The notes under the pieces were generated by a model. That model worked only from the letters and a program-made list of their open reading frames with translations. It was not told where the DNA came from and did not search any database. DNA of 53,951 bases from Promethearchaeota archaeon Loki_b32 (GTDB taxonomy: Archaea > Asgardarchaeota > Lokiarchaeia > Sigyniarchaeales > SOKP01), in the NCBI GenBank assembly GCA_005223125.1, contig NJBH01000026.1, positions 1 to 53,951 on the forward strand, in the 5' to 3' direction. Of this stretch, positions 31,647 to 53,951 are shown in pieces. A program made the position numbers and the translations under genes. The stretch's first letter is position 1. Every line of letters begins with the position of its first letter.

Positions 31647-32690
31647 TTATTGCTTAGATTTAATCAAGGCTTTTGCTAATTTACAAAAGCTTTCTTCTAC
31701 ATTTTTACCTGTTAAAGCAGATGTCTCTAAATATTCTAAATTTAACTTTTTCGCGATTTCATTTGCTTGTTCTACTGAAACTTTTCTTTCATCAAGTAAA
31801 TCTTCTTTATTTCCTAAGATAAATCCAATTAATTCTTCATTTTGCATTTTTAGATTTTTAATGACATCATTATACCAATTAGGAATGCTCTCAAATGATT
31901 TAAGATTTGTCAAATCAAAGATTAAAATTACTGCTTCCGACCCTTTATAGAAGTGTCGCCGCATGATCTCGAATTTACTCTGACCAGCGATATCCCATAG
32001 AATCAAATTAGCATAATCATTATCAACTTTAATATTCTTCTCTGAGATACTTACTCCTAGCGTTGGAATATAAGTACGTATAAAAGCATGGTCAGTAAAT
32101 CTTAGAATTGTACTAGTTTTACCAACACTAGGATCTCCACATATTATTATCTTATAATTGTACCCTGATTTTCTTTCTTCTATTTTATTATCTTCCGGAA
32201 ACGCTTCTAATTCAGAGGTTGACTTCTCTTTATTAGATAAATCATCTAAAATTTCTGAAACTCTATTTTTTAATTCATTAATTTCAGTGTAGATGTCATC
32301 TGATTTAGCTTGATTATTTTCTAAATCTATGATTTTTTGAGCACTTTCACTAAAAGCGGATTCAAGATAATCGATATATTTGTAGAATATGAGATCGTAT
32401 GCCTCTTTAAATAATAAAGTAATTGACGATACTGCTGCACCTCCACGTCGAGATTCATCTGCACGTTCAATATACTTTGTTATGCCTTTTAAATTCAACA
32501 TAGGAAAAGGGATAATAACTAAAGATTGTGGAATAACACCTTGGTCAGTTGAGAGCATGGTAATTGATTTTATACCAACTGACATACTAATATTGTCAGA
32601 CAAATCAATCGGATCCCATAAGAACGGTTTAGGGCCTATTTTCTCGTCTAATAATGTGTATACTATAGCGGTAATTATTTCTTCTGACAT
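31647..32690 (-). CDS. Longin-like domain fused to a Rab-like GTPase
   Basis: N-terminal DEKIGPKP..IIPFP..DESRRG; C-terminal GDPSVGKTS, PTLG, WDIAGQ, NKED, SAL. Confidence 0.9.
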   Translation of the reverse strand: MSEEIITAIVYTLLDEKIGPKPFLWDPIDLSDNISMSVGIKSITMLSTDQGVIPQSLVIIPFPMLNLKGITKYIERADESRRGGAAVSSITLLFKEAYDLIFYKYIDYLESAFSESAQKIIDLENNQAKSDDIYTEINELKNRVSEILDDLSNKEKSTSELEAFPEDNKIEERKSGYNYKIIICGDPSVGKTSTILRFTDHAFIRTYIPTLGVSISEKNIKVDNDYANLILWDIAGQSKFEIMRRHFYKGSEAVILIFDLTNLKSFESIPNWYNDVIKNLKMQNEELIGFILGNKEDLLDERKVSVEQANEIAKKLNLEYLETSALTGKNVEESFCKLAKALIKSKQ

Positions 32691-33862: not shown

Positions 33863-34912
33863 CTATAATCGAGATTCATACAATAACTTCGCAATGGTTG
33901 AAAACGCATAATTCACATTTTCTCCCAATAGTGCTGAAGTTTCAATAAATCCTAATTTTAATTTACTTGCTAATTGATCTACTATTTCAGAAGATATCTT
34001 ACAACTATCTTTCAAATCTTTTTTATTTCCAATTATGAATCCAACTAATTCTTCAGAGCGGTCTTTCACTTGATCAACTACATCTGAAAACCATTTAGGT
34101 ATATTATCAAAAGATTCAGGTTTTGTCAAATCGAACACTAAAAAAACCGCATCTGAACCTCGGTAGAATTGTTGTCTCATTGTTTGAAATTTTTGTTGGC
34201 CTCCTATATCCCAAAGTGTTAATTGAATAACAGTTTGCTCGATCTTAAAGATTTTGTCGCTCACCATGACCCCGAGAGTTGGCACGTAATTTCTCCTGAA
34301 CGCATTATTAGTATATCTTAAAATTAATGAAGTTTTTCCAACATTTGGGTCCCCCACTATAATAATTTTAAATTGATAATCTATTAAACTTCGATCTTTA
34401 ATTTGTTGTTCAGGAAATTCTTCACTCGCAATCTCTTGTTGAGCAACCTCTTGAAGTCTTAGTTCTTCTAAAAGGCTAGAGATATTAAATTCAAGATGTT
34501 CTAATACATTTATGAAATCTTCTCTAGAAGCCCCTGATTTTTCTAGACTTACTATAGTTCCAGAAAGATTATTGAAAGGAATAGAAAGTTCATTAAGATA
34601 TTTATAAAAAATGACATCAGCATTTTCTTGAAATAATAAAACTATTGCAGATTGACCAATGTTTCCTCGTCTAGAAGGATCATCCCATTTAATATATTTA
34701 ACTAATCCCTTTAAATTCTTTGAAGGAAAAGGTAATATTACTAAAGATTCTGGAACCAGCCCTTTCTCTCCTGATAATATCGTTAAAGCTTTTATACATA
34801 TATGAATAAGATCCATCTGTGAAAATTGAGTAGAAAGCCAAGCTACTGGATTTGGACCTAATTCGTCGTTCATTTCTACATAAACAATCCCTGATATTAT
34901 TTTCTGCTCCAT
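33863..34912 (-). CDS. Longin-like domain fused to a Rab-like GTPase (paralog of 31647-32690)
   Basis: N-terminal DELGPNP..ILPFP..DPSRRG; GDPNVGKTS, PTLG, WDIGGQ, NKKD, SAL. Confidence 0.9.
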   Translation of the reverse strand: MEQKIISGIVYVEMNDELGPNPVAWLSTQFSQMDLIHICIKALTILSGEKGLVPESLVILPFPSKNLKGLVKYIKWDDPSRRGNIGQSAIVLLFQENADVIFYKYLNELSIPFNNLSGTIVSLEKSGASREDFINVLEHLEFNISSLLEELRLQEVAQQEIASEEFPEQQIKDRSLIDYQFKIIIVGDPNVGKTSLILRYTNNAFRRNYVPTLGVMVSDKIFKIEQTVIQLTLWDIGGQQKFQTMRQQFYRGSDAVFLVFDLTKPESFDNIPKWFSDVVDQVKDRSEELVGFIIGNKKDLKDSCKISSEIVDQLASKLKLGFIETSALLGENVNYAFSTIAKLLYESRL

Positions 34913-42754: not shown

Positions 42755-43657
42755 ATGTTAAATTTTGAATCTGAACAAAAAACATTCAAAATGGGTAACG
42801 TTAAATTCGGTGGTCAGCCCGGAGAAAATCCGATTGTTATGGTAGCAACTGTTTTTTATACAAAACATGCCGCATTGTTGGATGAAAAAACCGGTAAATT
42901 TGATAAAAATATTCTCGAACAAGAGTTAAATGATTTTACAGAAGTTATTGAAGAAACACAATTACAAGGAGTAATTGATGTAGTTGGGGCATACCCAGAA
43001 GTGTTGATAAAGGAATGTGAGTTTATTGCTGATAATGTGGAATATCCATTCTTAGTTGATGGTCTGAATGATACTTCTAGAATTCCCGCTATGAAAGGAT
43101 TACAGGAGATCGGATTATTGGATAAAGCAATATTAAACAGTATTGATGAAAATACTAATGATGAGAATCTAGAAAAACTAAAAGAAATTGGAGTAAAAAA
43201 TGCTGTTTTATTAACATTTGGAAATAAATATATGTTTCCACAGCAGAAGTTAAAATTCTTAAAAGAAATTTTGATTCCTAAAGCTCAAAAAGCTAATATT
43301 GATAATTACATCGTTGATACGGCTGTTTTGGATTTACCCTCAATTTCCATTAACTTTGAAACTGTAGGATTAATTAAAAAAGAACTAGGATTGCCAGCTG
43401 GATTCGCTCCTGCTAATGCGATTTATGGGTGGAGTTTTGTTAAAAAGTATGGTGAAAGCGCTCGATGTGGTGCAATTGCTTCCATAATGGCCTATTGTGC
43501 TACTGCACCTAGTGATTTTATATTGTTTGGACCAATAAAATTCGCTAAATGTGTTGTACCTGCAATTGCATTGATTTCTGGAGTTAATTCCTACTATCAA
43601 AAGAGAGTAAAAAGAAAGAAAATATCTGAGCGAACACCATTAAAAACAATTTTTTAA
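42755..43657 (+). CDS. Stand-alone MtrH-like pterin methyltransferase
   Basis: KFGGQPGENP, PFLVD, ILNSI, VDTAVLD, GLPAGFAPANA, DFILFGPI. Confidence 0.88.
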   Translation: MLNFESEQKTFKMGNVKFGGQPGENPIVMVATVFYTKHAALLDEKTGKFDKNILEQELNDFTEVIEETQLQGVIDVVGAYPEVLIKECEFIADNVEYPFLVDGLNDTSRIPAMKGLQEIGLLDKAILNSIDENTNDENLEKLKEIGVKNAVLLTFGNKYMFPQQKLKFLKEILIPKAQKANIDNYIVDTAVLDLPSISINFETVGLIKKELGLPAGFAPANAIYGWSFVKKYGESARCGAIASIMAYCATAPSDFILFGPIKFAKCVVPAIALISGVNSYYQKRVKRKKISERTPLKTIF

Positions 43658-45156
43658 GCGATATATCTTAATAACAGGTCTTTTGTTTGATTTAAAAATT
43701 CTGATAATTGCTTATTTATTGTCTTTTTTCTCTTTTCATCATCTATTAAAAATAGAAGAAACATATTATTTTCTTCAATTTGGATTTTTTTAAAAAGTAT
43801 CACTGAATTAGCAACTTTAAATATTGCTTCTTCTTTCTGTAGAGCCTTGAATTTAGCAAAAATTTTAAATAACACAGTAAATTGCGGAGCTGTTACTTCA
43901 AATACATTCATTACATCTGCTTTTGGTATTTTAATTAATTCCATTGCTTCATTACTGTAAAAATCTGCTAAAACTAATCCATCACTGCTTAGTAATAGAG
44001 TCAAATAGGAATTTGTTGTTAAAGAGAAATTTCTAAGATTATGGTTAATCAAATCTCTATTTGGGCTTAATTTTGATATCCCAGAAGAAAAAGCGCGTAA
44101 TATTGTAAAAATTTGAAAGATGCTAGTTATAAAAATTTCGAGTGGTTCATCAGAAGTAATTTTAGCTAGTTTTTTTTTAATAAATTCAATATTTTCTTTA
44201 AGTTCCAATGTTTTTATGACGTCAGAATCTCCTTTAGATAAAATATAGATTATAGGAGTATTTTGATTGAATTTATTCAAAACATTTTTTAAACTTTGAA
44301 GATAATCGATACTCTCTTCGAATCTCTTTCTATTTTTTATATCAATAAAATAAAAAAGTAAATCTGCTTCATATAAGTAGATTTCTGCTTTATTAATATA
44401 CTTCTCTCTAAATACAAATTGTCCTCCTAAATCCCATAAAAAGATTGTTGCACCTAGTGCTTCTATAGATTTTATACTTGCACCAGCAGTGGGTTTTAAT
44501 CCAATTAATTTACTATATTTACGATCAACAGAAAGTAGAAAACTAGTTTTACCTGAGTCGTCTAATCCTGCGAACAAAATTTTCATCTTTCGGTGCGTAG
44601 TAATAGGTGTTGAGGGGCTTTTTTCAATTTCTATTAAGCCTAATAAAAGATCATCACGGAAAAGAGGTTCAATATCTTGACGGGGCGGATAAATTTTTTC
44701 GATATCTTTGTCAAAAGATTTGAAAAATTCATATACTACTGGTTTAATTCGATTCATGTTATTATACAAAAAACTTCGACTATTCTCTTCTACTAATATT
44801 GAAAAAGCCGTAGCTACAGGGTGATCTGAGTTTATTCTAATAAAATGGAAATATGTAAGCGAGGTAGTATTAAAATCAGGATACGGTAAAATTGCATAAT
44901 ATTGTATTTTTTGTAGATCTGTCTCTTGGGATACTATTTTATCACTAATAAACAAACTTAAATTTTTAATAGAAATTTGAGTTATATCTCTATATGTTAA
45001 AATAAGATTATCTTCCCTATTTGATTCTTCGCTAATTTCTTTTAATTCTTTTTCTGTATAATAATTGGGGAAGCAATAAATTGGAGCTGGGCCAAGCTCT
45101 CCATATACACTAAAAACAAAACCCTTTATAATTGAAGATTTGAGTAATTCTTCCAT
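43654..45156 (-). CDS. Longin-like + Arf/Rag-like GTPase + roadblock-like three-domain protein
   Basis: GELGPAP..ILPYP; GLDDSGKTS, PT, WDLGGQ, SKGD, TSI; C-terminal LLLSSDGLVLADFY. Confidence 0.88.
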   Translation of the reverse strand: MEELLKSSIIKGFVFSVYGELGPAPIYCFPNYYTEKELKEISEESNREDNLILTYRDITQISIKNLSLFISDKIVSQETDLQKIQYYAILPYPDFNTTSLTYFHFIRINSDHPVATAFSILVEENSRSFLYNNMNRIKPVVYEFFKSFDKDIEKIYPPRQDIEPLFRDDLLLGLIEIEKSPSTPITTHRKMKILFAGLDDSGKTSFLLSVDRKYSKLIGLKPTAGASIKSIEALGATIFLWDLGGQFVFREKYINKAEIYLYEADLLFYFIDIKNRKRFEESIDYLQSLKNVLNKFNQNTPIIYILSKGDSDVIKTLELKENIEFIKKKLAKITSDEPLEIFITSIFQIFTILRAFSSGISKLSPNRDLINHNLRNFSLTTNSYLTLLLSSDGLVLADFYSNEAMELIKIPKADVMNVFEVTAPQFTVLFKIFAKFKALQKEEAIFKVANSVILFKKIQIEENNMFLLFLIDDEKRKKTINKQLSEFLNQTKDLLLRYIA

Positions 45157-47845: not shown

Positions 47846-48817
47846 TTGACTTTGGAAAAGAATCTGAAACAATCAATTTTATACTTAAAAAAAGAAGAAC
47901 CTGAAATGGTCGTAAGCCCTAATAAGGTTCTCTTTACAGGCTTAGATGATGCCGGCAAAACGAGCATTATTTTATCACTTCAAAGAGAATTTTCAAAAAT
48001 TGCAATCCTTTCCCCCACAAGAGGTGCACAGCGAAGAATATTCAATTTTTTGGATAAAGAAATCTCAGAATGGGATTTAGGCGGACAATTGGCATATCGT
48101 ATTGCCTACTTAAAAAATCCAGGCAAGTATTTTGAAGGAACTGAAATTGCAATCTATGTAATTGACATTCAAAACAAATCAAGAATACCGGAGGCTACAA
48201 GTTACTTTAAAGATGTAATAGAACAATTTAAAGAATTAGAAATTGAACCCCCGATATATGTATTTCTTCATAAATTTGATCCTGCTTTACGAAGAAGTGC
48301 CCAAAATGAAATGGAATTGTTAATTATAGATTTAAAAGATAAATTAAGAGACACTAAATATAAAGAAATTTATTATTATGAAACTTCTATTTATGATTTT
48401 GGTTCAATTATCACAGCTATGTCTGAGATTCTTTTAAGTCTATATCCAAAATCAGAATTAATAGAAAAAACAATTCATGAATTTGCTAAAAAAGTAAACT
48501 CTGAAGGAGTCGTAATAATTGATGACAATTCATTAATTATTGGATCTTACTATAAGGATGAAGAAACAAAACATCTTTTAACAGCCTCAACCCCATATTT
48601 CTTGACGTTGCATGATTCCTTCCAGTTTACCAGTCCCATGGAAGAAAAGTATGAAAATAGAATGATCGTTCAAAGATTTGGCAAGAACTTCATATTTAAA
48701 CAAATAACGCTAAAGAAAGAGTCAGAACCATATTATTTAATACTTTTAAAGGAGGATCCAGTTTTCCGTAAAGAAGATCTCGAATCCTTCGCAAACTTAT
48801 TAAAAGAGATTTTATAA
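47846..48817 (+). CDS. Arf/Rag-like GTPase with a C-terminal roadblock-like domain
   Basis: GLDDAGKTS, PTRG, WDLGGQ, HKFD (Rag-type HKxD), ETSIYD; C-terminal VVIIDDNSLIIGSYY. Confidence 0.9.
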   Translation: MTLEKNLKQSILYLKKEEPEMVVSPNKVLFTGLDDAGKTSIILSLQREFSKIAILSPTRGAQRRIFNFLDKEISEWDLGGQLAYRIAYLKNPGKYFEGTEIAIYVIDIQNKSRIPEATSYFKDVIEQFKELEIEPPIYVFLHKFDPALRRSAQNEMELLIIDLKDKLRDTKYKEIYYYETSIYDFGSIITAMSEILLSLYPKSELIEKTIHEFAKKVNSEGVVIIDDNSLIIGSYYKDEETKHLLTASTPYFLTLHDSFQFTSPMEEKYENRMIVQRFGKNFIFKQITLKKESEPYYLILLKEDPVFRKEDLESFANLLKEIL

Positions 48818-49014: not shown

Positions 49015-50085
49015 TTGATCATATGTCAGAATTGTGGTACTACTAATAATGAAATTAATACTCGCATTTGTAGGAATTGTGGTGCATTATTACCAGTTTC
49101 CTCCAAATCACGTAGAGTAAGAGGGCAAAGAATTAGTACGGAAAAGAAAAAAAAACAGAAAGCAACTAAACAACCAAAACAAAAACCTGTTAAACAAGAA
49201 AAAAAAGTAGAAGATAAATTAGAATTAGAAGAAATCCCGAAAGAAAATGGGATTATTGATAAAGAATTGGAGTTACACGAGATTCCCACTACTGTCCAAG
49301 AAGATTTTGAAATTCAAGCCCCTGAAGAAAGTAAATCAACAATTTTACAAGAAATTCCAGCTCAACCTTTTAAAGGATCAATAATAAACTCTCGAAGTGG
49401 TGTCAGATCACCTCCATCCCTACCTACTCTCCCTCCTCGCTCTGGGGACACAATTTCTAATGCTTTTTCAGAACTTAAAAAATCAGTATTAGAAGAACAA
49501 GAGGAATATAAAGAAATTCCATTATCTCCAATTCCCTTAGAAACTAGCGTAAGCGAAGAATCAGTTAGAAAAAGAAATCAACTAGAAAAAGATATGACAG
49601 AAGTTTTAGGATTTCTTTCGAAAAAAATCTCAGTTAAAAAATTGGAAATTCCTAAAGCTAAGACAAAACAAAAAGAGGAACCGAAGGAAGAAATTCCACC
49701 TTCGAGTATGAATGAAATCTTGAAAAGATTAATCACATTAGACTTAAATATTGAAGCGTCCGCAATAATAAAAACAGATGGAACGATATTAGCGTCAGCA
49801 ATCTCAAGTAGAATTTCTGATTCTTTATTTGCTACAATTGCTATGAATCTTTCAACGATAGGAACGGATATTATAGAAGGATTAGGTGCTGGTACATTAA
49901 AATCTATTTCTCTAAAAGCCACAGAAGGAGTTTTAGATCTAGCCCCTATCGATAAAGAAAATCCAAGCGTTGAAGATATGTTTTTAATATTATTTTCTCA
50001 TCCCAAAGTAAAAAGTGGAATAATATCCTTTGCTGTTAGTATAGTCAAAAAACAAATTAAGAATTATTTAGGTTTAAAAAAATAA
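49015..50085 (+). CDS. Zinc ribbon + disordered linker + roadblock/LC7 domain protein
   Basis: CQNCG..N....CRNCG; P/E/K-rich linker; EASAIIKTDGTILAS...KSGII. Confidence 0.85.
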   Translation: MIICQNCGTTNNEINTRICRNCGALLPVSSKSRRVRGQRISTEKKKKQKATKQPKQKPVKQEKKVEDKLELEEIPKENGIIDKELELHEIPTTVQEDFEIQAPEESKSTILQEIPAQPFKGSIINSRSGVRSPPSLPTLPPRSGDTISNAFSELKKSVLEEQEEYKEIPLSPIPLETSVSEESVRKRNQLEKDMTEVLGFLSKKISVKKLEIPKAKTKQKEEPKEEIPPSSMNEILKRLITLDLNIEASAIIKTDGTILASAISSRISDSLFATIAMNLSTIGTDIIEGLGAGTLKSISLKATEGVLDLAPIDKENPSVEDMFLILFSHPKVKSGIISFAVSIVKKQIKNYLGLKK

Positions 50086-51197: not shown

Positions 51198-53006
51198 ATG
51201 GATTTATTACCTAGAGTATTTAGAACTGAAGGAAACATAGCAGAATTCGATTCCGTTAAGATTTTTGAAAGCATATTAAAAGAGACACATATGAAAGAAA
51301 CAGATGCTAAACATATAACTGAATTAGTAGTAAGAAGGATAATTAGTTCTGGTATTAAATTTCTTTCTGGCCCCCATATAAGAGAAATTGTCTGTTCAAT
51401 ACTTTCAGAACAACATTTTGAGAACGAACGAAAATTATATACGCGAATTGGTATGCCTCTAATGGATTATGAAGAAATTCTTGAAAAAGGACATAGTGAT
51501 CAACCAAATTTGCGAATTAATCCAGAAAAAATCAATCATTGGTCAGCAAACCAAATAGCAGAAGAATATGCTCATTTAAGATTACTTGACAACGAAGAAT
51601 CTAAAGCGCATCTATATGGTGATATTCATATTAATGGATTGTGTTATTTTGATTTGAGACCATTCAGTCAAATTTGGGATCCCCGTATAATATTAAATAA
51701 TGGATTTCCTCCAATAAATAATCTAAAAGGTCACTTAAAGCAAGGCTTACCAAAAGATCTCGCTTCCGCCTTTTTTCAGATTTTTGCATGGCTCGGAACT
51801 GTTCAAAGTGAATTTTATGGGTGTCAAGGTTTCAATTTAATAACAATTTTTTTAGCACCCTATATTTCAAACTTATCTGAAGAAGAAATCAAACAAAGAA
51901 TTCGAAAATTAATTTATTTGATAAATAATTTACCACTTATTATTGGGCGTGAAGTTCCATCAATATTATTATCTTCATGTATTTCTATCCTTGATGTCTT
52001 CTCTAATGTTCCTGTTATAGATTTTAAGGGAAAAACCAAGAATGTTTACGGAGATTATCAAGAACAATGTTTAAAATTATTTAAAGCACTAATTTTCCTA
52101 TTTAAAGAGAGAAGTCAGAAAAATATTACTAATTCAACACCAAAACACCAAATAATCCTAAATAATAAATTTATCAAAGATGTAGAAGGTATTTACTCGA
52201 ATTTTTGGGATGATATTAGCACGAATGGAAATAATTATTTTATGAATTTATGTTTGGATACATATACTAAAAAAAATATTGATAAACTTTCTAAGAATAA
52301 CTTTTATAATTACGGACTTCTTCAGAATATTAGCTTAAACTTACCTAGATATGCTTATATTAGCCGAGATGAAGAGGACTTTTTGGAAATATTAAGATCG
52401 AAACTAATACTAAGTTCAGAAATTTTACTAAAAAAATACAATATAATAGAAAAAAGATTAGAATCAAATCATTTACCTTGCTGTAGTAGTATTTATAATA
52501 AAGAACCACTTTTTAAATTAGAAAATCAGAGTTTGTCATTTAGCTTGGTTGGATTGAATGAGTCAATAAAAACTTTAACAAATTATGAACTCCACGAACA
52601 TTCAGAAGCAGTTAAGTTTAGTTTGAGGATTTTAAACGAGCTAAATAAAATATGTGTAGAATTAACAGAAGAAAATGATAAAAACTTTATATTAAGTGAA
52701 AATATCTCAAAAAAAGCAATTAAAAGATTTGCAAAATTAGACTTAAAACATTTTCCAAAAGAAGTTAAATTATTACATAACAGCAATAATTACGAGTATA
52801 CAAATTCAATTCATTTTCGTAATGATATTAAGATTGATTTGCTTAAGAGAGTAGAAATTCAAGGAAATTTTCATCGCCTCATTCAAAATGGAGCAATTGA
52901 ATGTATTCCTTTAAATGAACTTAAAGAAAATAATTTGATCCTTAAAGAATTTATCAATATAATATGTGAAAAATCAAGAATTTCAAGCGTAAAGTTTTAT
53001 TCTTAA
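51198..53006 (+). CDS. ATP-cone + degenerate class III ribonucleotide reductase (NrdD-like) protein
   Basis: ATP cone (RVFRTEG..FDSVKI..IREIV), AHLYGDIHI, SLNLPR, LVGLNE, RFAKLD, YTNS; no C-terminal CxxC or RxxGY. Confidence 0.8.
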   Translation: MDLLPRVFRTEGNIAEFDSVKIFESILKETHMKETDAKHITELVVRRIISSGIKFLSGPHIREIVCSILSEQHFENERKLYTRIGMPLMDYEEILEKGHSDQPNLRINPEKINHWSANQIAEEYAHLRLLDNEESKAHLYGDIHINGLCYFDLRPFSQIWDPRIILNNGFPPINNLKGHLKQGLPKDLASAFFQIFAWLGTVQSEFYGCQGFNLITIFLAPYISNLSEEEIKQRIRKLIYLINNLPLIIGREVPSILLSSCISILDVFSNVPVIDFKGKTKNVYGDYQEQCLKLFKALIFLFKERSQKNITNSTPKHQIILNNKFIKDVEGIYSNFWDDISTNGNNYFMNLCLDTYTKKNIDKLSKNNFYNYGLLQNISLNLPRYAYISRDEEDFLEILRSKLILSSEILLKKYNIIEKRLESNHLPCCSSIYNKEPLFKLENQSLSFSLVGLNESIKTLTNYELHEHSEAVKFSLRILNELNKICVELTEENDKNFILSENISKKAIKRFAKLDLKHFPKEVKLLHNSNNYEYTNSIHFRNDIKIDLLKRVEIQGNFHRLIQNGAIECIPLNELKENNLILKEFINIICEKSRISSVKFYS

Positions 53007-53166: not shown

Positions 53167-53951
53167 TTGACCAAATCAAAGGATAAGAAAAAAAAAGGCA
53201 AACCAAGTGAACAGCAAGACACTGAATCTAAATCGAATATTATAAAAGCAGTTGTCTTAAGTATATTTGATGAAAATGGACCTACTCCCAAGATTTACTG
53301 GCCATATGATTTAGTTGAACAATCGGGACTTTTAATTGCTATGAAAACAATTAGTTTATTAATGGGGGATGCTACTTATCAAGATGGGATAGGAACAGAA
53401 GGAGTTAATTATTTTGGAATATTACCTTTTCCTGATCTAAAATTAAATGGGTTGACGTATTTTTTCCTTATACCTGATGATGAAGCACGTGGTAAAGCAT
53501 TAGCTGCAACTATTACTGTATTAATTGATGAAGAAAATAAAGTTTTTTTCTATGAAAACATGAAATATTTAAGAATTATAATAGATAAAGCAGCTACCCA
53601 AATTCAGAATAATAAGCAACATAGTGAACGAGAAATAATTATGGATGAGATAAGGGAAGAACTTTTTGAATTTGCTAATGAATTAAAAGATCCCTTTTCT
53701 ACTAAAAGACAAATTAAAATTTTATTAACAGGATTAGATAAAGCAGGAAAATCAAGTTTTATGTATGGAATTAGAAGGAAATATTCTCAAATTATTAAAT
53801 CATTACCAACTAAAGGCGTAGAAAGAACTGAAGAAAAAATTTTTGAAGAACAAAATTCTCAAATTTCTGTATGGGACTTAGGAGGCCAGAAAAAATATCG
53901 AGAAAGATATCTTGAACAAAGTAAAGTCTATTTATATAATATTGATCTAAT
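53167..53951 (+). CDS. Longin-like domain fused to an Arf/Rag-like GTPase (partial, runs off the window end; absent from the ORF track)
   Basis: From TTG at 53167: ...AVVLSIFDENGPTPKIYWP...ILPFPDL..LTYFFLIPDDEARGKALAATITVL...GLDKAGKSS..PTKG..WDLGGQ. Confidence 0.88.
   Translation, partial: MTKSKDKKKKGKPSEQQDTESKSNIIKAVVLSIFDENGPTPKIYWPYDLVEQSGLLIAMKTISLLMGDATYQDGIGTEGVNYFGILPFPDLKLNGLTYFFLIPDDEARGKALAATITVLIDEENKVFFYENMKYLRIIIDKAATQIQNNKQHSEREIIMDEIREELFEFANELKDPFSTKRQIKILLTGLDKAGKSSFMYGIRRKYSQIIKSLPTKGVERTEEKIFEEQNSQISVWDLGGQKKYRERYLEQSKVYLYNIDL

Follow-up and report, generated by a model that had tools for sequence, protein, structure and literature searches.

A longin-GTPase-roadblock protein without an arginine finger and its finger-bearing paralogue in a Lokiarchaeial order: candidate halves of an asymmetric pair

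Introduction

Eukaryotic amino-acid signalling shows two asymmetries: its Rag GTPases form unequal heterodimers, and its longin GTPase-activating proteins (GAPs) combine a catalytic with a non-catalytic subunit. A locus of an Asgard archaeon raises the question of whether both asymmetries could meet in a single pair of proteins. The locus lies in a stretch of 53,951 nucleotides of Promethearchaeota archaeon Loki_b32 (contig NJBH01000026.1; hereafter the window), which is contig C39 of a metagenome-assembled genome (MAG) of ~4.1 Mb with ~30% G+C. It encodes two paralogues in which a longin domain is followed by a Rag-like GTPase domain and a roadblock domain, namely the product of positions 43654-45156 (- strand), here called A, and that of a gene starting at 53167 (+ strand), here called B. 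A first-pass annotation, made from the sequence alone, had described A as a possible non-catalytic partner that lacks the arginine finger kept by B, and had proposed that the two might form an asymmetric dimer.

The longin-GTPase-roadblock (LGR) architecture, together with homodimers modelled with AlphaFold2 (AF2), has been published for 'Ca. Prometheoarchaeum syntrophicum' MK-D1 (Tran et al. 2024, PMC10933270). A GP motif at the β1-β2 turn has been described for GAP longins, as have longin pairs with one finger, and the same work left open which GTPases are served by the Asgard longins bearing the GP motif (PMC12290439, Traffic 2025).

Results

A is an intact Rag-like GTPase whose longin lacks the finger

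Gene A translates as an unbroken frame of 500 amino acids (aa), and its 120 orthologues (59-90% identity), which with A itself made a set of 121 sequences, are also ~500 aa long. The longin domain occupies residues 1-185 (44602-45156, - strand) in the order β-β-α-β-β-β-α-α, with an A-specific insert between β2 and α1 (residues ~31-55); it is followed by the Rag-like GTPase domain (residues 190-362, 44071-44589, - strand) and by a C-terminal roadblock domain packed on it (residues 363-500, 43657-44070, - strand). A matched the Pfam family Gtr1_RagA (PF04670) with 71.5 bits over residues 192-403, the cut-off being 22, and the family Arf (PF00025) with 65 bits. In the AF2 monomer model, built on 103 sequences (predicted local distance difference test, pLDDT, 80.5; predicted template modelling score, pTM, 0.80), the longin topology spanned residues 10-179 and the roadblock topology residues 366-499, with the GTPase domain between them, and a structure search with the full-length model returned match lists filled by GTPases. 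Pfam and AF2 thus confirmed the predicted longin-GTPase-roadblock architecture.

The translation also bore out the motifs reported earlier for the longin. GELGPAP (residues 19-25, 45082-45102, - strand) places the GP motif, Gly22-Pro23, at the β1-β2 turn, and both residues were present in 120 of the 120 sequences covering them; ILPYP (residues 89-93, 44878-44892, - strand) forms a P-x-P at the β3-β4 turn, with Pro91 and Pro93 invariant. The stretch comprising β4, the loop and β5 (residues 100-121, 44794-44859, - strand) reads LTYFHFIRINSDHPVATAFSIL; its loop is two residues shorter than that of B and contains no Arg-Gly, so that D-x3-R-G is absent. Orthologues that normally retain the arginine had been set beforehand as the observation that would overturn the proposal, and what we found was a conserved loop arginine in 0 of the 120. 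Arginine occurs at position 107 of the loop in some sequences (R50/K17/E17/N16 among the 121), and in the other columns of positions 107-112 in at most 5 of 121. We considered Arg107 as a substitute finger and rejected it, given this composition across orthologues and its alignment to Pro103 of B, not to Arg108.

The GTPase motifs of A, namely G1 GLDDSGKTS, switch I Thr223, G3 WDLGGQ, G4 SKGD and G5 TSIF, are intact and were each found in 120-121 of the 121 sequences. The reading of SKGD as the mark of a dead GTPase was rejected, as 120 of 121 sequences have Ser307 and the entire A lineage uses [ST]K.D. Many residues of the A longin are invariant among orthologues as well. These data establish A as an intact and strongly conserved Rag-like GTPase from which the finger has been absent since the origin of the A lineage. 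With its PF04670 match, its intact G1-G5 motifs and a roadblock packed on the G domain, A has the features of a Rag/Gtr protein; it also has the longin fold and the GP motif of the GAP longins of the FLCN/NPRL2/SMCR8 type, without their conserved β4-β5 finger. As in the partners of the FNIP/NPRL3/C9orf72 type, the finger is absent from A while the paralogue keeps it; their DENN module is not found in A. We infer that the A longin is unable to act as a folliculin-type GAP, and the non-catalytic reading of this domain is well supported.

It is also worth mentioning that the insert of A-type longins has ~15-25 residues with a short helix (residues 31-60, window 44977-45066, - strand) and is followed by an invariant Arg56-Asp57-x-Thr59-Gln60, a motif that B does not have. 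According to the topology of the fold, the GP motif and the finger loop lie at one end of the sheet and this region at the other, where it probably represents a separate interaction surface.

The paralogue B keeps the arginine finger

The window holds the 5' part of gene B (53167-53949, + strand; 261 codons), which is cut by the contig end. As the first-pass annotation had suggested, the gene could be completed from adjoining sequence: the terminal part of contig C41, read on the reverse strand, supplies the rest of the GTPase domain and the roadblock domain, giving a protein of ~487 aa in total, and full-length B orthologues have 470-490 aa. C39 and C41 share 178 nucleotides at their ends (window 53772-53949), and the 4 mismatches in this overlap point to strain heterogeneity. 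The site seems prone to assembly breaks, as the B orthologues of many related MAGs likewise adjoin a contig end or are interrupted in the GTPase domain (frames of 227-289 aa).

Around the finger the B frame reads PDDEARG. The DDEARG loop (Asp104 to Arg108-Gly109; 53476-53493, + strand) contains the candidate arginine finger; none of its 120 orthologues lacks Arg108 or Gly109, and both Ala107-Arg108-Gly109 and Gly38-Pro39 show little or no variation in this set. A profile-profile alignment (hhalign) related the A and B longins with a probability of 99.6% (E 3.7e-24) and placed the Arg-Gly of B opposite a 2-residue gap in A. The claim that the paralogue at 53167 retains the finger in a longin homologous to that of A was therefore upheld, with Ala-Arg-Gly in 120/120 B orthologues.

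The split predates the two families of the order

We inferred a maximum-likelihood tree from the GTPase-roadblock columns only, excluding those of the longin and rooting on longin-less Rag-like neighbours. The LGR clade received a support of 100; all forms without the arginine fell into one clade (97), and the adjacent clade of Arg-bearing forms had a support of 88. The Arg-less clade takes in divergent forms of the sister family (f2), which adjoin the same AIR-synthase-like gene as A and are thus positional orthologues of A. Since these forms lie inside the Arg-less clade, the duplication is older than the separation of the order's two families, and the same probably applies to the loss of the finger. 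On this evidence A and B would stem from a single duplication of an ancestral longin-GTPase-roadblock gene, and one later loss, at the base of the A lineage, probably removed the catalytic arginine. The closest paralogue of A in every domain is B.

A search with the A longin against 1.84 billion representatives returned only 53 clusters, all of this type, and within a 200-genome sample of the phylum only this order gave strong matches to the two proteins; other Asgard families have stand-alone or differently fused Arg-bearing longins. Among the 135 genomes of the family, A was found in 118, B in 115 and both in 107, nearly always as single copies, and A was present in 13 of 14 genomes of the sister family. 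The co-occurrence of Arg-plus and Arg-minus forms across genomes, proposed earlier as a check, was thus observed.

Absence patterns were examined as a test of co-dependence. Eight genomes have B without A: in G138 this reflects a real deletion, G049, G109, G221, G271 and G283 do not have the flanking MtrH-like gene either, and in G207 the slot for A lies off the contig. Eleven have A without B, and the six examined (G125, G195, G217, G230, G242 and G248) all showed contig ends, N gaps of the scaffold or a slot off the contig. Except for G138, the one-sided absences examined were uninformative and were set aside.

The A lineage evolves faster and loses catalytic residues

Over the same genomes the A longins share 41-62% identity and the B longins 68-73%, while the G domains keep pace with each other. 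In the sister family the Arg split holds in 12/12 proteins of the A lineage and 11/11 of the B lineage; the ARG motif is kept in every B-lineage protein of both families, and the GP motif in every A- and B-lineage protein examined. In this family the catalytic Gln has been lost from 7 of the 12 A-lineage proteins (WDIPGK/S, WDVN-K and others) and the P-loop from one, whereas WDxGGQ is kept in 10 of 11 B-lineage proteins. In genome G165, from one genus of this family, the G domains of both proteins have decayed: the A-lineage protein (L039 1501-3045, G165:C27) has lost the P-loop (GLKHSEINRF) and the G3 motif, and in the B-lineage protein (L022 797-2161, G165:C11) DxxGQ (now WDYKPK) and the Thr of switch I are gone, although ARG and GP are kept. 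Both are probable pseudo-GTPases; the divergence of the LokiRagO-type and AIR-synthase-like genes of G165 does not exceed that in sister genera. The loss of GTPase catalytic residues in the A lineage of the sister family, in addition to the lineage-wide absence of the finger, fits the non-catalytic role that had been proposed for A.

Relation to folliculin and to other Asgard longins

When nine B-type longins and two longin-Rab fusions were scanned with the Pfam Folliculin model, 9 of these 11 Arg-bearing longins matched below the gathering score, over the region of the finger loop and with a best E of 3.9e-5, and the longin region of B was among the sub-threshold matches. The A longin gave no Pfam match up to E 10, the Folliculin, NPR2 and C9orf72 models included. 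Among PDB sequences, phmmer and three profile searches started from Arg-bearing longins matched the Lokiarchaeial longin 8yqg alone (E down to 8e-10); FLCN, NPRL2 and SMCR8 never appeared, and a direct sequence tie to folliculin was thus not supported by these searches. In the ESM Atlas only Promethearchaeota fragment clusters were recovered, with scores of 0.78-0.86, and one cluster with 19% NPR2 members is no more than a lead.

With respect to the Asgard longins of the FLCN/SMCR8 type (PMC12290439), B, the two longin-Rab-like fusions and stand-alone relatives share the GP motif and Arg-Gly, and A has the GP motif. They differ in that A carries no finger and that the longins studied here are fused to their presumed client GTPases.

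The two longin-Rab fusions are encoded elsewhere in the window (31647-32690 and 33863-34912, both - strand). They are ~348 aa long, join a GP-motif longin to a Rab/Ras-like GTPase (Pfam Ras, E ~1e-46) and carry D-x3-R-G as DESRRG and DPSRRG. Most of the related genomes checked have one or two such genes of ~350 aa, whose products give the impression of a folliculin-type longin permanently joined to a Rab-like client.

Discussion

A possible asymmetric pair

The reading that we tentatively favour, while holding it somewhat short of an even chance, is that A is the finger-less regulatory half of a facultative asymmetric pair with B. The two proteins would meet through their roadblock domains, in the manner of RagA and RagC, and through their longin domains, in the manner of FLCN:FNIP or SMCR8:C9orf72; Arg108 of B would then be the only finger available to both GTPase domains, so that the two nucleotide pockets would be treated unequally. 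Several sequence features may speak for pairing, namely the longin homology with Arg-Gly opposite a gap, the strict split of the arginine, the tree, the co-retention of both genes and their linkage; the published longin pairs with one finger (PMC12290439) provide a precedent. Coupling of the two proteins is suggested by the faster evolution of the A longin, the losses of the Gln and the P-loop in the A lineage and the joint decay of the A and B G domains in G165. As B survives intact where A has been deleted, the pairing would be facultative or regulatory and not obligatory, and an obligate heterodimer is unlikely. That A and B are a real heterodimer in the full sense, with both roadblock-roadblock and longin-longin contacts and one finger of B serving two unequal Rag-like domains, we regard as doubtful; the A:B heterodimer is at this point an attractive but unproven hypothesis.

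Linkage deserves some caution. In most genomes of the family A and B lie on one contig, divergently oriented and usually 6-12 kb apart, at most ~20 kb (~8 kb in the window), and in one genus of the sister family they are linked and divergent at 4-10 kb. The conserved block holds unrelated housekeeping genes, so that the linkage may be inherited gene order and not a functional cluster. A longin-less Rag-like GTPase-roadblock gene (47846-48817, + strand; Pfam Gtr1_RagA, E 1.8e-26), whose product matches the homotetrameric LokiRagO of PDB entry 8yl2 with E 3.2e-88, has kept its place near A, B or both in the two families.

A number of observations weigh against the pairing of A with B. Genome G138, 99% complete, has undergone a clean deletion of A, with the AIR-synthase-like gene on one side of the gap and the MtrH-like gene on the other. 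The slot (L031 16417-17135, G138:C51; L033 1430-2150 in G213:C47) contains ~700 bp of AT-rich DNA with a small open reading frame (ORF) for a hydrophobic peptide of ~65 aa; no remnant of A was detected in the slot of G138, nor any A elsewhere in that genome. The related species representative G213, with 94% nucleotide identity to G138 across the region, has the same deletion, which is thus not an assembly artefact. B of G138 keeps GP, ARG, GKT, DLGGQ, NKYD and TSIF and is 81% identical to the B of a sister genome that holds A, the neighbouring genes being 70-78% identical; with its catalytic motifs intact after the deletion, B does not need A. Moreover, the co-occurrence of the two forms inside one order largely reflects shared ancestry and provides no independent evidence. 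The genes around and between A and B are MtrH-like, AIR-synthase-like, SLOG, NERD and NrdD-like; A and B form no operon and are not co-transcribed, and in the sister family a distance of 81 kb separates them in a closed genome of another genus, while a third genus has them on separate large contigs. Solved Lokiarchaeial relatives comprise a homotetramer (8yl2, LokiRagO), a monomer (8zla, LokiRagM) and a longin homodimer (8yqg). A fused A+B protein was not found, no protein longer than 875 aa having matched the A longin, although this is weak evidence. Finally, the link to folliculin is suggested by sub-threshold Pfam matches of B only and by shared motifs.

Many of these points would be expected if A and B were independent switches, each acting as its own homodimer or as a monomer, with B having a built-in GAP finger. 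The longin of A would then have been repurposed as a platform for GTPases or effectors without GAP activity, or act like a guanine nucleotide exchange factor, as most longin domains do, and its GTPase would cycle by intrinsic hydrolysis or through another regulator. The clean deletion of A next to an intact and well conserved B, the missing operon and the unlinked genes of some genera, and the homo-oligomeric or monomeric state of the solved relatives all agree with this explanation, as do the homodimers modelled for such architectures by Tran et al. (PMC10933270), and the insert and Arg56-Asp57-x-Thr59-Gln60 of A, absent from B, suggest a distinct surface. It leaves unexplained, however, why the A lineage alone, although retained, repeatedly loses its GTPase catalytic residues, and why the G domains of A and B decayed jointly in G165 while their neighbours were spared; a self-standing switch without P-loop or Gln would be expected to be lost, not kept. 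We hold independent switches to be a real possibility, if not the one that we prefer. That A is paired with, or regulated in trans by, a partner other than B seems quite improbable to us. The candidates would be the LokiRagO-type product of 47846, through the roadblock, or a different longin with the arginine, for example one of the two fusions (31647 and 33863) or a stand-alone protein: besides A the window has three Arg-bearing GP longins, other Asgard families have stand-alone ones, and the 47846-type gene stays near A (genus g9) or B (G165) despite their separation. On the other hand, an orthologue of 47846 crystallised as a homotetramer, unrelated housekeeping genes are kept nearby too, so that proximity may again be inherited gene order, and it is B that is the closest paralogue of A in every domain. 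The faster evolution of the A longin, the deletion of A in one lineage and the decay of G motifs in the sister family could also be those of a redundant duplicate in slow decay, with the loss of the arginine as its first step. Sequence conservation appears to have largely refuted this idea, to which we give hardly any credence: an intact A of 500 aa in 118/135 genomes of the family and its presence in 13/14 of the sister family, the near-invariant G motifs (120-121/121), the many invariant longin residues and the retention of the A lineage since before the family split are not those of a gene on its way out.

Comparison with known systems

In FLCN:FNIP, NPRL2:NPRL3 and SMCR8:C9orf72, as in A and B, one paralogue bears the arginine and the other, without it, evolves faster; C9orf72 has kept the GP motif, as A has. 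Unlike those proteins, A and B have no DENN domains and each has its own GTPase and roadblock domains; the Arg-bearing B persists without A in one lineage, only B resembles the Pfam Folliculin model, at a score below threshold, and the pairing of A with B is putative. In comparison with the eukaryotic Rag/Gtr proteins (RagA/B-RagC/D, Gtr1-Gtr2), A has an N-terminal longin and SKGD as its G4 motif, and LokiRagO and LokiRagM, a homotetramer and a monomer, are not heterodimers; no paper on either of these two was found in the literature searched. A shares with the published Lokiarchaeial LGR proteins (PMC10933270) the domain order, the Rag/Arf-like class and the taxon, its orthologues being labelled Promethearchaeota or Lokiarchaeia, whereas the folliculin-type motifs and the split into Arg-bearing and Arg-less forms are absent from that paper. 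The literature searched yielded no description of an Arg-plus/Arg-minus LGR split or pair, or of the patterns of deletion and decay. What is new here is thus this split, the losses of the Gln and the P-loop in the A lineage of the sister family, and the deletion of A in G138 and G213; the architecture and the Asgard folliculin-type longins had already been published.

One archaeal family thus has an ancient and stably inherited division into a finger-bearing and a finger-less form, in which each longin is fused to its own Rag-like GTPase, and such fusions offer an answer to the question of which GTPases the Asgard GP-motif longins serve (left open in PMC12290439). If the proposed pairing were true, A and B would represent an archaeal precursor, in two chains, of both the Rag heterodimer and its GAP of the FLCN:FNIP or GATOR1 type, and the one-fingered asymmetry of eukaryotic nutrient signalling would have arisen before eukaryotes, in fused proteins. 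A and B constitute a small system, which should be expressible in bacteria, for testing the action of an archaeal folliculin-type GAP, and they bear on whether GAPs act in cis or in trans and on how asymmetry arises through the duplication of a homodimer.

Neighbouring genes

In genomes where A and B are separated, the LokiRagO-type gene remains beside A (genus g9) or beside B (G165). Directly downstream of it, in 9 of the 9 family genomes whose cluster was read, lies a gene for a protein with a Zn-ribbon, a low-complexity linker and a roadblock-like part (49015-50085, + strand in the window). Its Zn-ribbon matches are weak, the linker is long and rich in Lys, Glu and Pro, and the C-terminal 130 aa matched Robl_LC7 with E 0.075, which is below threshold.

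The NrdD-like gene beside B (51198-53006, + strand) encodes 602 aa in the window. In two genera it is replaced by an ORF of 145-162 aa (L013 10480-10917, L016 10277-10714, L018 4183-4671 and L031 3076-3564), which matches ~95 residues of the NrdD-like protein and possibly corresponds to the ATP-cone part alone.

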